64,000 bases of DNA from an uncultured bacterium (lineage in GTDB: Bacteria; Patescibacteriota; Minisyncoccia; UBA6257; 2-01-FULL-56-20): NCBI GenBank assembly GCA_963807165.1, contig CAWDZM010000001.1, forward strand, positions 507,590 to 571,589. The letters are read 5' to 3'. The notes under the pieces are model-generated. The model made no database searches. It was not told where the DNA came from and saw only the letters and a program-made list of their open reading frames with translations. Shown one piece after another: positions 9,302-40,200 of this stretch (the stretch's first letter is position 1; each line of letters opens with the position of its first letter). The position numbers were made by a program, and so were the translations under genes.

Positions 9302-12300
9302 CTAAACCTTCCGTATCGCCACCCAAACACTCTCCCCTTCTAGTTTGGTTATTTCCTCTGCAATAAATTTTTCCGAACGGCCAAATTCTATCACCGTCGC
9401 GCCGATATCCGCCAAGAACGATTTCTCATTCCTATCAATCACTTGCATCGTTTTTTCCGGCAGCTCCATAAGCGCGACGATCTTATCCTTCGGCTCAAGC
9501 CCGGCCTTCTGACGAAGCTCTTGGAACATGCGCGCCACTTCGCGCACCAGGCCTTCCTCGCGCAAGGCGGGAGTGATGATCGTATCGAGCGCGGCTTCGC
9601 GATCAAGAGACTTATCGCATGCGATGTCTTTTACATTCACCTCGCTTTTTAATATCGCCATAAGACGCTCGTCGTGAAGCCAAGGATAATCATCGCGGAT
9701 TATTAATTTCGAAAGCGGTTGACGCACTTTTATCTTTGCCTCTGCACGAGCAGCAAGACCAAGACTCGCCAATTGACGAATTTCCGCCATCCCTTTCATA
9801 AGTATGATCCGTTCAGGTTCACTGAAGGTAAACTCTGTCTTCGGCCACGCCTCCAAGTGCACCGAACCGGCGCCATCGGCCGGAGCAAGCTCCAGATACA
9901 ATGCCTCCGCAAGGAGCGGCATGAACGGCGCGAGTACGCGGCTCGTCGTCAGAAGCGATGCCTGCATGGTCCGAAAAAATCCCACATCCTTTCGCTTGCG
10001 CGAACGGCGCAAGTACCACGTCGAAAGGTCATCCACATATCCCTGGATCGCGCGCGTGGCGCGAACGGTGTCATACGCATCGAGCGATCGCGTCACAATA
10101 TCCACGAGTTCTTCGGTTCGTGCCGTAATCCATTGATCGAGAATGTTCTTATCTCCAGCGGGAGTATTTTCACCCGCATCATACGCGCCACCACTCGCCA
10201 CCTCTCCTCGGTACGTCGCAAAATATTTATAGACATTCGTCAGCAACATTCCCACTTTGCGAGACACTCCCTCAACGCCCTTTTCAGAGAAGCTTAAATT
10301 ATCGGCCTGCATAACAACGGAATTCATAAGATAGAACCTGAGTGCATCTGCTCCATATTTATCGATGAGCAGTTTCGGATCGGGGAAATTTCCCTTCGAT
10401 TTACTCATCTTGGAGCCATCCTCGGCAAGGATCGTTCCTGTCGTCACTACATTCTCGAACGGCGCACGGCCGAACAAGATGTACGACACAACGTGAGACA
10501 GGTAAAACCACGCGCGCGTCTGTGCGATGTACTCCGCCACAAACTGCGCCGGAAAATGTTTTTTGAACTCATCCTTGTTCTCAAATGGGTAATGATACTC
10601 TGCGAACGGCATCGAACCCGCCTCAATCCACGAATCGAAGATCTCTGGCGTGCGGCGCATCACGCCGCCACACGTTGCACACGGGAATGTGATGTCGTCG
10701 ATGTACGGTCGGTGCAGGTCCGCCTCACCGCTATCGTTCCGTGGAATATGTTTTACGCCAAATTCAACCATCTCGGCAGGGCCAATAAACACGTTGTTAT
10801 TGTTCCATTTTTTATTTCCCGTTTCCTTTTCGCTCCACCCAAGCGCCGCCTGGGAAAGCATCCAAATTGTATCTTCATGGCTCACGATCAGAATATTTTT
10901 GCCATGATGTTTCGCTTCCATCTCGCGAAGAAAATCCCATCCACGCGTACGGACATCGCTCAGTGATTCGCTCTTTTCATCAACACGCCCGGTAAAACGA
11001 TTTTCCATCGGGAATAATATTCTATACTCCGCGAGAGGTTTGCCGGAAAAACTCCCGAGATTGATCTCCCTCAAACGCTCGTCGTAGTGGACGGATACCC
11101 CCAACTCCGCGGCAACGATCTCCGCAGATTCTTTTGTGCGCAAAAGATCGGACGCAAAGATCATATCGATCTTTTCCCCTTTTATTTTTTTTGCGGTATG
11201 CTCGACTTCTTTTTTACCCAGCGAGGTAAGCTTGCAATGCTGATCGCCAGAATCAATGATCCCGCGGGTAATATTCTCCGACTTCGCCATGGCGCATCGC
11301 AAAATAATTATTCTTCGAACCACCCGCCTTCTTTGAAAGCTCATCCATGCTTCCCACCGCCTCCACGCTTTCACAACCAGCGCACTTCCATACCGGCACC
11401 GGATTGCCCCAGTAGCGATTGCGTGAAATGTTCCAATCCGGTGCCGCCTCCACACTCTTCGCATACCGGCCATTCTTGAGATGCTCCGGGAACCAGTTGA
11501 TCTCCTTCTGGTTCGAATTGAGCAAGCCTTGCTTGATTTTTTGGATATTCACGAACCACGCCGGGAGTGCGTTATAGTAGAGCATCGTGCCGCAACGCCA
11601 GCAGTGTGGATAGGAATGGGTGATAGACTCTTTCCTGAAAAGTAATCTCTCCGGCGTGCGATTTTCCAGATCTTCGATCACTAGCTTGTCCGCCTTTTTG
11701 AAATATTGCCCGCGCAAAAATTCCGGCGCCTTGTCCGTGAAGATCCCCCGCTCGTCGAGTAGCGGGACGATCGGCAATCCATCGCGCACGCCGAGTGCGT
11801 AATCATCTTCGCCATGTACCGGCGCGATATGCACAATGCCCGTGCCATCCTCAGTATTCACAAAACTCGCACCATACACACGGTATGATTTTTCACTATC
11901 CATCGCCGCGACCTTATAAAGCGGCTCATATTGAATTCCTCTTAATTGGCTAACTGGATATTTATGTTTAGGAGGATCTTCAAAACCATATTCTTTTGCT
12001 CGATTAATAGCGAGAATAAATCCCTCACCAGCCCTTTCGTAAACTCCGTATTCTTCATCAAGATTTATGGCGAGAGCGACGTTACCAGGTAACGTCCACG
12101 GTGTGGTTGTCCACGCCAATAAGAATGTATTTTTGGGCAGGCCAAGCCCTTTCGTTTGCCCCTCAATGATTACCTTAAATTTTCCAATAGCCGACTCCTC
12201 CGTCACGTCTTTATAGCTGTTATCCATCGCGACCTCAAAGTTCGAAAGTGGCGTCTCGCAGCGCGGGCAGTACAATAACACTTTGCGACCTTCGTAGATG

Positions 12301-12845
12301 AGGTCTTTATCGAACATCTGCTTGAATCCCCACCACACGGATTCCATGAAGTCGGCGTCGAGTGTTTTGTACGAATCGTCAAAATCCACCCAGCGCGCGA
12401 TGCGGCGGATCGTCTGGCGCCATTCAGAAACGTAGGTGAACACCATGCTGCGGCACGTCTCGTTGAATTTCTTGATGCCAATCTCTTCGATCTGTTTTTT
12501 ACCGGAGATGCCAAGTTTGCGCTCCACAACCTCTTCAATCGGTAGCCCATGGCAGTCCCATCCCCACCGGCGGCGCACGAAGCGGCCGTTCATTGTCTGA
12601 TAACGCGGCACAACGTCCTTTATGGTAGACGCAAGCAAGTGCCCGTAGTGCGGAAGTCCCGTGGCGAACGGTGGACCATCATAAAAAGTGAACGGTTCGC
12701 CGTCGGCAGTCTGTGCCAAACTCTTTTCAAAAATTTTGCGTTCGTCCCAAAACGCCAGCACTTTTTCTTCCATCTCGGGAATATTGATCTCGCCCTCAAG
12801 AAAATGCGGCATGTGATGCGATTCCTGCGAAGTTTCCTTAGCCAT
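9302..12845 (-). CDS. ileS: isoleucine--tRNA ligase (type 2) with an inserted histidine-phosphatase domain; frame disrupted at ~11282
   Basis: ORF 11253..12914 has PHYGHLL (HIGH) and the editing-domain motif TTTPWTLPGN. ORF 9302..11473 has KMSKS, DLHRPYIDD, CATCGG and the anticodon-binding region. The two are in different frames and overlap at 11253-11473. The true start is the ATG at 12843-12845 (MAKETSQ...). Confidence 0.8.
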
Positions 12846-12938
12846 TCCTATTAAAATAGCAGGTTTTGGGGGATTTTCAAAGAAAAAAATCCCGCGGGGC
12901 ATAGTGCGCCACACGGGTGTTGTGCGAAACTTCAGCTA

Positions 12939-13436
12939 CTAATAGGTATTCCTTATATCGAATGTTGCTATCGAGAGCAGCCGCGTAGGGATTGCGACCT
13001 CATCCACTTCAGTAAAGTGGTGTTTTTTTCGCTTGACGACCAAATATTCTTCCTTGCCATCAAACTCGAGACGCTCGAGAGCAGTGTAATTATTATTCAG
13101 CCGGAATCCGGATACCGCTACACGATTTTCTTTACCGGCCACAACCTCTCCCGGCAGACGAAAATCCTCTATGAGAAAATGTCCATTGTGAGCTTTCACC
13201 TCGGATTTGAAATGTATCCGATACGTTCCCTTCTCTGGATCAAAAACTCTCTCTCCTTTTTTTCTTTCCACAAAAAACCTCCGTTGGGAAATTTCCCGAA
13301 CCAATGAAATTTTACAAAACTCCCTAGATCTTTTCAAGCGTCCCGATTCCCAGCAGCCCCAATCCTTTTTGCAGAACATCAGCCGTAGTGGCGATGAGCA
13401 GTAATCGCGCGGCGCGGCGCGGCGCGGCGACCTCAT
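12939..13436 (-). CDS. hypothetical protein (5' end uncertain, overlaps argS 3' end)
   Basis: 165-aa ORF with no recognisable motif. The N-terminal ~37 codons overlap argS, so the real start is probably internal. Confidence 0.2.
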   Translation of the reverse strand: MRSPRRAAPRDYCSSPLRLMFCKKDWGCWESGRLKRSREFCKISLVREISQRRFFVERKKGERVFDPEKGTYRIHFKSEVKAHNGHFLIEDFRLPGEVVAGKENRVAVSGFRLNNNYTALERLEFDGKEEYLVVKRKKHHFTEVDEVAIPTRLLSIATFDIRNTY

Positions 13437-15042
13437 CCTTCAGGATCGGCATCGTCTCATAGAATTTGTTCGCCGCGACGGCGAGCTTATAGAGATAGGT
13501 CGCAATCGTGCTCGTGGAATAAAGCTCACCCGCGCGCGCAACGATATCCGGGAATTCAAACAACTTGCGCACGAGCGCGAGCTCGGTCGTGTGGTCGAGC
13601 GAAGAAACATCCGCCCTTGGATCCGGAACTTTTGACTTTGGATATGCACTTTTTGATTTCCGTAAAATACTCCTTAACCGCGCGTAGGTATACTGCAGAT
13701 ACGGCGCGCTGTCGCCGGAGAAGTCCAACATCTTCTCCCAATTGAAAACAATATCCGTCGTGCGATTCTCTTTAAGGTCGTTATACTTCAACGCGCCAAG
13801 CGCGATCACGAATGCAATTTCGTGCTTTTCTTTTACCGAAAGATCCGGGTTTTTAACTTCTACGACCTCGCGTGCTTTGGAAACCGCCTCGTCGATCACC
13901 TCTTTTAAGCTCTGCGCGGTCCCCGCGCGCGTGGAAAGCTTCTTGCCGCCTGCGCCAAGAACCAGGCCATACTTAATATGCGTAAGCTCCGCCGCATCCA
14001 TCCCCAGCATATGCGCAACAGCGAACAGCTGCTCAAAATGCAGCGCTTGCTCGTTTCCCACCACATATAATATCTTTTCCGGCTTATATTTTTTGAGCCG
14101 ATAGCGGAGGTTCGCAATATCGCGCGTAAGATAGATACTCGCGCCGTCGGATTTTTCGATGAGCGCCGGCGGTAACCCCACGGCATCAAGCTTCACCACC
14201 ACCGCGCCCTCACTCCGCTCCGCGATCTTTTTTGAAAGAAGATCGTGTACGATCGGCTTCATTTCTTTTTCAAAAAAATTCTCGCCGAGCCATACGTCAA
14301 AATCCACCCCCAGTGTTTTATATGCCTGTTCAAATTCCTTCAACGATTCTTTTTTGAACCACTCCCAAAGTTTTCTATTTGCGCGATCGCCATCCTCCAG
14401 TTTTTTGAATTCCTCCTGGCCACGCTTTTCGAGCGCGGGATCAGCCTTTACTTCTTCGTGAAAGCGCACATAGAGCGCCTGCAATGTTTCGATCGGATTT
14501 TTCTCAACGCTCCGTGTATCACCCCATAATTTATATGCCGCGATGAGCTTTCCGAACTGCGTCCCCCAGTCGCCAAGATAATTCCACCGCACCACGCGAT
14601 AGCCGGAATATTCCAAAATATTTCCCAGCGCGGCGCCGATGATCGTGTTGCGCAAATGTCCCACCTGCATCGCCTTTGCAATGTTCGGCGATGAATATTC
14701 CACGATCACCGTCTTCCCCTTTCCGCCAATGCTCCTTCCATATTTCTTATCCCGCGCGATCGCGGCGAACTCATTTTGCATCGTCGCATCACTCAGCCAA
14801 AAATTAATAAAGCCCGGCGCGGCAGCCTCCACTTTTTGAAAAAAATCCGCCGGCGCCTCGGCCGCGATCCGCGCGGCATACTCCTTGGCGAGCTCGAGCG
14901 GCGGGACGCCTTTTACCTTAGCCGCGCGCAACGCAAAGTTCGTCGAGTAGTGTCCGAACAGTTCCTCGTCAGGAACAGAAATATCGATCGCCGCATCCGC
15001 GCCGAAGATCTTTTTCAGTATGCTTATTATTTCTTTATGCAT
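13324..15042 (-). CDS. argS: arginine--tRNA ligase
   Basis: HVGHLRNTIIGAALGNIL (HIGH-type) and LSTRAGTAQSL (ArgRS MSTR-type) motifs. Likely start is the ATG at 15040-15042 (MHKEIISILKKIFG); the longer ORF extension looks spurious. Confidence 0.85.
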   Translation of the reverse strand: MHKEIISILKKIFGADAAIDISVPDEELFGHYSTNFALRAAKVKGVPPLELAKEYAARIAAEAPADFFQKVEAAAPGFINFWLSDATMQNEFAAIARDKKYGRSIGGKGKTVIVEYSSPNIAKAMQVGHLRNTIIGAALGNILEYSGYRVVRWNYLGDWGTQFGKLIAAYKLWGDTRSVEKNPIETLQALYVRFHEEVKADPALEKRGQEEFKKLEDGDRANRKLWEWFKKESLKEFEQAYKTLGVDFDVWLGENFFEKEMKPIVHDLLSKKIAERSEGAVVVKLDAVGLPPALIEKSDGASIYLTRDIANLRYRLKKYKPEKILYVVGNEQALHFEQLFAVAHMLGMDAAELTHIKYGLVLGAGGKKLSTRAGTAQSLKEVIDEAVSKAREVVEVKNPDLSVKEKHEIAFVIALGALKYNDLKENRTTDIVFNWEKMLDFSGDSAPYLQYTYARLRSILRKSKSAYPKSKVPDPRADVSSLDHTTELALVRKLFEFPDIVARAGELYSTSTIATYLYKLAVAANKFYETMPILKDEVAAPRRAARLLLIATTADVLQKGLGLLGIGTLEKI

Positions 15043-28261: not shown

Positions 28262-28495
28262 TTATTTTTTCTTATTTTTCCTGATGGCGTGCAAGGCCAC
28301 GTTCACAGTATTTGGAGTGGTTCCCAAAAGTTCGGCTATCCTCTTAGGCTTAAATCCCACAGAATCCAGTTCTTTAATTAAAGTAACTTGCCCCGTCCCC
28401 CGCTTGAGCCATACAGTAAGAAGCTTCACCACCTCTTCCGAAAATATCTGATTGGTTTGTTCCATTGTTTTATTTTTGTTTACGAGCTCTTTCAA
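28262..28495 (-). CDS. small HTH protein, paralog 2 of a tandem array
   Basis: 77 aa; ELDSVGFKPKRIAELLGTTPNTVNVALHAIRKNKKK. Confidence 0.45.
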   Translation of the reverse strand: MKELVNKNKTMEQTNQIFSEEVVKLLTVWLKRGTGQVTLIKELDSVGFKPKRIAELLGTTPNTVNVALHAIRKNKKK

Positions 28496-39838: not shown

Positions 39839-40200
39839 TTCTCTAGATGTTAGCTATTTAATTAGTTCGACTGCATGCAACCAGTTTAGCACATGTGCTA
39901 TTAGTGTCAAGCTAATACTGTGGATTACCTCTGGATAACTACATTGAGCTTAAAATGAGCGTATTTACATACAAATTCTATTATCCTATAATTTATGTAC
40001 AACTAAATAGGGTTGCCTAAACTCATCAGCAATGGCGAGCATGGCACAAAAACCAGTGACGGCTAGAAAGCTCTCAATCAGAGCACCGTCACTGGTCATA
40101 TCTCGAAAGGGTTATGGGTCCTCACGGATCGCTGGTTGGGAGCTTTCTGATTTAAAAATCCCCAACCGGCCCCAAAGGTCGGTTTTAGTTTAAAGAAAAA

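Follow-up and report, generated by a model that had tools for sequence, protein, structure and literature searches.

A histidine-phosphatase domain nested in the isoleucyl-tRNA synthetase of a Patescibacteria bacterium

Aminoacyl-tRNA synthetases rank among the best-studied enzymes, and each of their accessory domains, whether devoted to editing, tRNA binding, or signalling, has revealed new biology. The INS/YbaK/ProX and AlaX/AlaRS editing domains, for instance, act in proofreading, an established role, as deacylases of aminoacyl-tRNA; no phosphatase step is known to take part in aminoacylation. Here we describe ileS, the gene for isoleucyl-tRNA synthetase (IleRS), in a 64-kb stretch of contig CAWDZM010000001.1 (hereafter, the window), in which a histidine-phosphatase domain is nested within the synthetase. 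The structural reference for the site is yeast IleRS, where residues 459−526 form the connective peptide CP3 and the CP2-3 linker just before it, ARDWNVSRNRYWG, lines the pocket that accommodates reveromycin A as well as the CCA end of the tRNA (PMC7955072).

The nested domain and its host synthetase

The nested domain comprises ~195 residues (SKNNYFAMRHGE ... IPRNDSGEA) and occupies 10721..11318 on the minus strand, with boundaries taken from the alignment with IleRSs that lack it; all coordinates are positions in the window, and ileS is read on the minus strand, from 12845 to 9302. The insert matches the Pfam family His_Phos_1 (PF00300) with E=5.6e-36 and 124.5 bits, compared to a gathering score of 21.7, over profile positions 3−173 of 194, and bears the RHG, RTKE, LRE, and SH motifs. 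An original prediction, made from the DNA letters, had read a histidine-phosphatase branch-1 domain of this size in frame within IleRS at 10760−11310; the assignment stands on this very strong match, and the span lies close to the aligned one. In the insert-less IleRSs of related genomes, 2−10 residues separate ...GSxxELxKxSG from DLH(R/K)..., the position taken in the window by SKNNYFAMRHGE...IPRNDSGEA, and the same short linker between the two CxxC pairs, correctly anticipated for homologous enzymes, is found in the solved IleRSs. When the insert is removed in silico, the 231-aa segment running from CP2 to the stem-contact fold is colinear with the solved type-2/eukaryotic IleRSs from human (9W01), P. 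megaterium (8C8U), yeast (7D5C), and T. thermophilus (1ILE), with E values of 1e-68 to 1e-72, leaving a length difference of 1−4 residues at the junction.

The window counterpart of the yeast linker is APDWNISRNRYWG, containing SRNRYWG (11406..11426, minus strand) and followed by the first CxxC knuckle. Because this linker and first CxxC match the CP2-3 linker and CP3 layout of the yeast enzyme (PMC7955072), sequence comparison places the phosphatase in CP3 of the Rossmann fold, ~30 residues past the SRNRYWG linker and between both knuckles, the first (CAGC, 11373..11384) upstream and the second (CATC, 10670..10681) downstream of the insert, both on the minus strand. The alignment with type-2 IleRSs thus confirms the insertion boundaries in CP3.

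The active-site motifs, all on the minus strand, comprise (i) RHGE (11283..11294), with the catalytic Arg and the nucleophilic His, (ii) LLRTKES (11126..11146), with the second catalytic Arg, (iii) RLREINLG (11054..11077), with the conserved acidic residue, a Glu expected to act as proton donor, and (iv) IVSHED (10871..10888), with the second catalytic His. The RHG Arg and His, the second Arg (RTKE), the acid (LRE; Glu or Asp), and the second His (SH, GH, or TH) are invariant in all 33 aligned domains, nested or free. An AlphaFold2 model based on a 55-sequence alignment discloses a compact, complete domain, with a predicted local distance difference test (pLDDT) value of 91.6 and a predicted template-modelling score (pTM) of 0.90. 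The top 50 Foldseek matches listed in the PDB are all histidine-phosphatase/phosphoglycerate mutase (PGM)-superfamily entries, with template-modelling (TM) scores up to 0.80, the best being the mycobacterial hydrolase 6S2Q, the phosphoserine phosphatase PspA (4IJ6), the glucosyl-3-phosphoglycerate phosphatase Rv2419c (4QIH), and PhoE (1H2E), at TM 0.7−0.8 and 22−26% identity; the nearest solved protein by sequence is PhoE (E=4e-13). Judged from its motifs and the model, the domain is apparently catalytically competent, and a fold like those of the small-molecule phosphatases PhoE, PspA, and GpgP is predicted with high confidence.

The description of the insert as PGAM-like holds at the superfamily level, but not in the sense of a phosphoglycerate mutase. 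The insert misses all the NCBIfam equivalog cut-offs (dPGM_arch, 81.8 versus 225 bits; CobC, 79.6 versus 163; PspA, 67.8 versus 350), and the models of bacterial cofactor-dependent phosphoglycerate mutase (dPGM) return 16−31 bits against cut-offs of 305−409. The mutase substrate motifs of GpmA are ERHYG, WRR, and HGNS; in a comparison of motifs, the insert displays LREINLG and SHEDT in their stead, and a WRR-like motif is absent. With equivalog cut-offs and mutase motifs both missed, a true dPGM serving glycolysis was rejected. An intein or a mobile selfish insert was likewise discarded, His_Phos_1 being the only Pfam domain in the insert, besides a weak, below-threshold OTCace_N match.

The host gene is carried by two long, overlapping minus-strand open reading frames (ORFs), 11253..12914 and 9302..11473. 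The upstream ORF ends in ...SKKAGGSKNNYFAMRHGEVGEYYPRDH (in another rendering, ...VPVWKCAGCESVEAVGSMDELSKKAGGSKNNYFAMRHGEVGEYYPRDH), and the downstream ORF, in the +1 frame, contains ...AMAKSENITRGIIDSG... (also rendered ...AMAKSENITRGIIDSGDQHCKLTSLGKK...) and extends to the IleRS C-terminus. Removal of one base (11282, or better 11281) yields a single ORF of 1180 aa from ATG 12845, a start backed by the N-terminal similarity to the relative L001 (MPKESHSEKH...); ileS, a class Ia, type-2 (eukaryote-like) IleRS with a nested phosphatase, accordingly spans 9302..12845 on the minus strand. The repaired protein reaches 784.3 bits on the ileS model TIGR00392, compared to a curated equivalog cut-off of 621.4, followed among the NCBIfam models by those of the type-2 mupirocin-resistance enzymes MupA and MupB, and its Pfam domains comprise tRNA-synt_1, Anticodon_1 (PF08264, E=5.9e-21), and the type-2 C-terminal domain DUF5915 (PF19302, E=2.4e-11). 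The HIGH signature motif appears as PHYGH (12639..12653, minus strand) and the KMSKS motif at 10397..10411 (minus strand); the CP1 editing domain displays its Thr-rich peptide WTTTPWT (12093−12113, minus strand) and the editing motif GTG.VH.AP.HG..D as GTGIVHIAPVHGEDDY (11799−11846, minus strand).

As it stands, the first ORF (11253..12845, minus strand) encodes the N-terminal half of IleRS, with the HIGH motif, the CP1 editing domain, CP2, and the first CxxC, and closes with the first strand of the phosphatase and RHGE, nine out-of-frame codons, and a TGA. The second, as called in public databases (P0266, MAKSENITRG..., 662 aa; 9302..11290, minus strand), encodes the remaining phosphatase, the second CxxC, KMSKS, and the anticodon-binding and C-terminal domains. 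A single uninterrupted IleRS frame is thus missing in the window, owing to the extra base at 11281/11282, and is intact in 79 relatives; apart from this break, no other defect is found over the 3.5 kb of ileS. Neither a second ileS nor a free-standing phosphatase was found within the 64-kb window, and the region upstream of ileS gives no Rfam match to a T-box or other leader. On its motifs and family scores, the locus is probably the genuine, essential ileS of a bacterium of the Patescibacteria, or candidate phyla radiation (CPR), a degree of confidence that we attach jointly to the whole of the explanation favoured here.

Relatives, gene neighbourhood, and possible role of the phosphatase

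When 1.84 billion cluster representatives were scanned without a profile, using an IleRS-flanked query, 250 matched at E≤1e-30. Of the 145 new, distant representatives returned, 117 extend over both IleRS-phosphatase-IleRS junctions in a single unbroken match, and 52 are full-length, at 1056−1382 aa; one such relative (P0121) comprises 1178 aa and is 54% identical. In GTDB, scanned with one genome per species, at least 158 species genomes encode a relative. The best 80 of the 158 loci were fetched, and the domain lies within one long unbroken ORF in all but one of them (79/80), with complete ORFs of 1055−1368 aa. Most of these fetched loci are short-read assemblies. The recurrence of the nested junctions in one ORF excludes a chimeric join and shows an architecture under selection. 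All but one of the fetched loci are labelled as Patescibacteria/CPR or as unnamed 'bacterium' metagenome-assembled genomes (MAGs), with Nomura-, Zambryski-, Adler-, Colwell-, Yanofsky-, Lipton-, Wolfe-, Wildermuth-, Taylor-, Sungii-, and Paceibacteria among the labels; the exception, L016, is labelled Spirochaetia. A CPR-type IleRS with phosphatase is thus found in two oddly labelled MAGs, one a 'Spirochaetia bacterium' (L016, QYPD01000003.1) and the other a 'Candidatus Methylomirabilis sp.' (P0020); both labels likely reflect bin contamination.

IleRS with a nested phosphatase is, therefore, abundant in public Patescibacteria genomes rather than rare. Annotation pipelines hide the architecture, naming such proteins 'isoleucine--tRNA ligase' or 'class I tRNA ligase family protein', or splitting them as 'histidine phosphatase family protein, partial'. 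A full-text literature search combining IleRS or aminoacyl-tRNA synthetase with histidine phosphatase or phosphoglycerate mutase, and a search on CPR synthetase insertions, returned nothing relevant, and NCBIfam holds an exception model for IleRS with GNAT and none for the IleRS-phosphatase architecture. The original claim that no synthetase with a PGAM-family domain has been described thus survives as regards the literature, but the architecture itself is common and automatically annotated as isoleucine--tRNA ligase. The window gene is a member of a widespread, apparently undescribed variant of a known enzyme.

The domain also occurs outside CP3. The closest free-standing homologues of the insert share ~40% identity with it and reach 180−200 bits on the insert profile, and the genomic context was inspected for five of them. 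In 4/5 the phosphatase gene lies directly 3′ of argS, the arginyl-tRNA synthetase gene. The order argS, phosphatase, ileS is displayed by P0089, P0065, and P0073, whose ileS products comprise 946−994 aa and lack the insert; the phosphatase gene is separated from its two neighbours by 2−4 nt in P0089 and by 43 and 4 nt in P0073, and in P0065 a 238-aa ORF stands between the phosphatase gene and ileS. In P0090 the phosphatase gene comes right after argS, with no called gene in the next 2.8 kb, so that ileS there is only presumed, and the fifth homologue adjoins recO, which flanks the same cluster. In 50 of the 80 fetched GTDB loci, the immediate upstream neighbour on the same strand is argS; the window, too, has argS upstream (13324..15042, minus strand). 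No extra free-standing copy was found within 4 kb in the 79 insert-bearing loci, and in the only insert-less locus of the 80 (L077), argS is immediately followed by a free-standing copy. Between argS and ileS of the window, a 165-aa ORF without Pfam match (12939−13436, minus strand) overlaps the argS 3′ end by ~110 nt; it occupies the position of the relatives' free-standing phosphatase and is not homologous to it.

A second insertion site is used in P0261 and P0233, at the start of the anticodon-binding domain, between this domain and the stem-contact fold (...YANIDxxK[HP]LDHWILSEL...), where the inserts reach only about 105−120 bits on the insert profile. P0140 carries the phosphatase at both CP3 and the second site, and P0226 and P0211 display two tandem His_Phos domains in CP3, the second copy replacing the second CxxC knuckle. 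P0233 lacks a CP3 phosphatase, yet at residues ~521−558 it shows LPRNDAGEV before DLHRPYIDD, matching the C-terminal tail of the insert (IPRNDSGEA in the window), which looks like a sequence remnant of a lost or relocated insert. By sequence comparison, the CP3-nested, second-site, and tandem forms and the free-standing forms of the argS-phosphatase-ileS operon are grouped as one orthologous family, the 'IleRS-associated histidine phosphatases'.

The domain would hydrolyse phosphomonoesters by way of a phospho-histidine intermediate. That it is found tethered to IleRS time and again suggests that it serves the isoleucylation step, for which its substrate or product would matter, rather than an unrelated metabolism, as an accessory activity resembling the editing domains that accompany other synthetases as separate proteins or as inserts. 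A phosphorylated tRNA acceptor end, a nucleotide, and a phosphorylated IleRS loop are candidate substrates, and candidate roles comprise the dephosphorylation of a 2′/3′-phosphorylated tRNA end or of a kinase-modified loop in the KMSKS region, or the destruction of a phosphorylated inhibitor. The conserved neighbourhood, the mutually exclusive free and nested forms, and the repeated fusion to the same partner together constitute a comparative-genomic signature of functional partnership, of the classic 'Rosetta-stone' type, to which the second site, the tandem copies, and the operon partnership with ileS belong. A rough neighbour-joining tree, which carries no support values, also speaks for the link, the free-standing forms falling within the group of CP3 inserts. 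Taking the sequence evidence together, we lean slightly towards a role of some kind coupled to IleRS. Because the free, nested, and relocated pattern follows that of synthetase editing domains, an accessory role in quality control, repair, or regulation is the most attractive reading. The more specific proposal drawn from this analogy, in which the phosphatase is an accessory catalytic module dedicated to IleRS in CPR and performs an unrecognised enzymatic step coupled to isoleucylation, is tentative and may well be wrong; such a module would follow the logic of cis and trans editing domains with a chemistry of another kind, and might remove 2′/3′-phosphates from damaged tRNA acceptor ends before charging, undo an inhibitory phosphorylation that a toxin kinase has placed on the synthetase, or destroy a phosphorylated IleRS inhibitor.

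Two observations weigh against a role coupled to IleRS. Three topologies are tolerated (free, CP3, and the anticodon-domain loop), which argues against a precise geometric link with the active site and would be explained just as well by mere co-expression. In structure, the nearest proteins are small-molecule phosphatases of metabolism, and no NCBIfam equivalog cut-off that would assign a substrate class is reached. The comparative data show that the domain need not occupy one precise position with respect to the IleRS active site, which keeps alive the main competitor, a housekeeping or metabolic phosphatase with no role in isoleucylation, captured by ileS as a passenger from an adjacent gene of the operon and benefiting from co-expression alone. 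The free-standing form, two unrelated insertion sites, and the tandem copies, all leaving the geometry to the active site unconstrained, speak for such a passenger, as do the kinship with small-molecule phosphatases and the generic housekeeping character of the cluster, made up of a pyrH-like kinase, argS, ileS, and recO. A passenger would nevertheless have to be nested in the catalytic domain of an essential enzyme at two or more sites and be kept there in at least 158 species, and it would have to account for the mutual exclusion of free and nested forms at the loci examined and for the identity of the fusion partner, which is IleRS among representatives retrieved with an IleRS-flanked query, argS and the other neighbours not having been searched for the domain. 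We regard a passenger as possible, though not probable. A purely structural role is very unlikely because the catalytic residues are invariant.

What gives the accessory role its interest is the setting: a phosphatase that appears, from its sequence, catalytically intact, in the core of IleRS and next to the linker of the tRNA CCA-end pocket, in a major and poorly understood radiation. Identification of its substrate could bring to light a step of quality control, repair, or regulation that is new to translation, or a resistance mechanism, in minimal-genome organisms.

The frame break in the window gene

The frame is broken by a single extra base at 11281..11282 (minus strand, GAAG[T]CGG). In the DNA alignment with L001, the closest relative, and four intact GTDB orthologues, the window reads GGCGAAGTCGGAG where the others read GGCGAAG-CGGAG, so that the extra base stands in GGCGAAG[T]CGGAG, within 1 nt of 11282, where it had been located at the outset, just after RHGE. 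Without the T (11281) the protein reads RHGEAENITRG, and without the G (11282) it reads RHGESENITRG; in the family, both Ala and Ser are common at the repaired position. Three outcomes had originally been left side by side, a broken gene, a wrong base, and a +1 shift of translation; the comparison favours the wrong base, leaves the broken gene as unlikely, and effectively excludes recoding.

The sequence comparisons make a consensus artefact the likely cause of the break, possibly a G/T polymorphism (Ala/Ser codon) collapsed into 'GT'. The site is in frame in L001, in L004−L008, in the 79 GTDB loci, and in the 117 representatives, and the break, ordinary in itself, is unique to the window among the relatives compared. 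The ORF from ATG 11290 (P0266) is present in the public collection as a one-member cluster, on an NCBI/ENA contig of 726,381 nt, and a single contig of this length, the size of a whole CPR genome, points to a long-read assembly. In L001 (4470−8047) and L002 (3745−7243), both from ENA 'contig_N' entries, the orthologous ileS lies in 4 and 3 pieces, respectively, broken elsewhere, and these scattered breaks suggest that the long-read consensus of that data series is prone to indels. Window 7447−9951 is matched, with 99.8% identity and no gaps, by a Logan contig from run ERR10755936 that ends short of the break; the match attests to a near-identical strain with single-nucleotide polymorphisms. 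Pattern scans of JGI metagenomes for the break site returned nothing, the repaired proteins were not found in the public protein collection, and a search of 5.8 billion proteins gave no near-identical protein, all 120 matches listed being ≤543 aa although full-length IleRSs exist. A spurious break would mean that the cell makes the full 1180-aa protein, and the case would illustrate how long-read consensus errors can mimic recoding.

Two points count against an artefact. The extra base lies outside any homopolymer, the commonest context of long-read errors, and a Pfam scan of the overlapping same-strand ORF pairs of the window disclosed no clear other split gene, which indicates that errors are rare here.

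These points are shared, in part, by the alternative that survives best, in which the break is real and ileS is a recently inactivated pseudogene, its function being supplied by a second ileS elsewhere or by a host. The position outside a homopolymer, the cleanly assembled appearance of the rest of the window, and the public gene call, which likewise splits the gene (P0266), speak for such a pseudogene. IleRS is, however, essential, and no second copy is present in the 64-kb window; the 3.5 kb are otherwise intact with all motifs, so the inactivation would have to be extremely recent; and all 79 insert-bearing relatives (79/79) are intact. We therefore consider inactivation unlikely.

A naturally split synthetase, in which residues 1−530 and the 662-aa fragment from ATG 11290 reassemble non-covalently, is highly improbable. 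Split class I synthetases can reassemble, as known from the fragment complementation of E. coli IleRS and from Aquifex LeuRS, and ATG 11290, overlapping the RHG codons, does open the downstream frame. Such an out-of-frame ATG is, however, inherent in any CAT-GGN (His-Gly) pair, as in RHG with His encoded by CAT; no Shine-Dalgarno-like sequence precedes it, and the upstream frame stops 35 nt downstream of it. The cut would part the catalytic His from the remaining phosphatase fold, and none of the relatives is split here.

A programmed +1 ribosomal frameshift after RHGE would supply the very shift needed to restore the frame, but every relative, the closest included, is in frame. The conservation of GIIDSG, identical in L001, requires the shift to lie upstream of the stop, and a prfB-like shift at the downstream TGA was rejected because it would destroy the conserved GII. 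What remains is a stretch of seven sense codons, GAA-GTC-GGA-GAA-TAT-TAC-CCG, with no stop, no slippery codon or quadruplet, and no upstream Shine-Dalgarno-like stimulator. With the shift site unconserved in orthologues and such signals missing, programmed frameshifting was discarded.

A misassembly joining IleRS halves from different molecules, with the phosphatase as a separate gene trapped at the junction, has nothing in its favour beyond the frame break itself and carries a negligible probability, the comparative data on the junctions refuting it: 79 independent genomes and 117 representatives read through identical IleRS-phosphatase-IleRS junctions within a single ORF, and both halves share the same closest, syntenic relative, L001.

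Other features of the window and comparison with known systems

Outside the ileS region, two adjacent serine-recombinase genes (47045−48953, plus strand, and 49236−49552, minus strand) lie beside a tmRNA gene (tag ANSNVAAPRAFAFA), the first comprising only a Resolvase and a truncated Recombinase domain; the region is a typical integration hotspot and may hold an integrated element or its remnant. The Rfam LOOT RNA motif is found at 40014−40130 (plus strand) with 84.7 bits (gathering score, 46.4). At 28262−28745 (minus strand), two overlapping ORFs of ~91 aa each show a weak Sigma70_r4_2 match; the pair could have arisen by tandem duplication or be the pieces of a small sigma/regulator gene that is broken.

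Compared to IleRSs of the type-2, mupirocin-resistant type, represented by Priestia megaterium IleRS2 (8C8U), T. thermophilus IleRS (1ILE), and the yeast and human cytoplasmic enzymes (7D5C and 9W01), the window enzyme preserves the HIGH (HYGH) and KMSKS motifs, the CP1 editing motifs, the CxxC...CxxC module of CP3, the anticodon-binding domain, and the DUF5915 C-terminus, but displays in CP3 an independent enzyme domain of ~195 additional residues where the known enzymes have a linker of a few residues. The branch-1 small phosphatases, including PhoE/YhfR (1EBB, 1H2E), PspA (4IJ5/6), Rv2419c (4QIH), and 6S2Q, share with this domain the predicted fold, the Arg-His...Arg...Glu...His series, and a length of ~190−210 aa; they are free-standing, whereas the window domain, at 22−26% identity, is nested in another enzyme.

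Precedents for parts of this arrangement exist. The NCBIfam model NF040702, 'ileS_w_GNAT', describes an IleRS with an extra, unrelated catalytic domain, in that case an N-acetyltransferase instead of a histidine phosphatase; the window protein scores 277.4 bits against its cut-off of 1999 and is not a member. The RNase H/CobC-like acid phosphatases of the Rv2228c type (NF005567, one of the NCBIfam models that score best on the insert, with 81.5 bits, far under the cut-off of 326) join His_Phos_1 to a nucleic-acid enzyme, but the fusion is end-to-end rather than nested and the partner enzyme is unrelated. The frame of the window gene resembles that of prfB in that a +1 shift restores it, but differs from it in that neither a slippery codon nor a stop in frame is present where the shift would occur, no Shine-Dalgarno element lies upstream, and the site is not conserved in relatives. 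The closest parallel to the distribution of the family is found in the editing domains ProRS INS/YbaK/ProX and AlaX/AlaRS, which likewise occur both as separate proteins and inserted in or appended to a synthetase, as the phosphatase occurs both separately near the synthetase gene and inserted in its product; the window domain differs from them in having a predicted phosphomonoesterase fold, one without a known role in translation.

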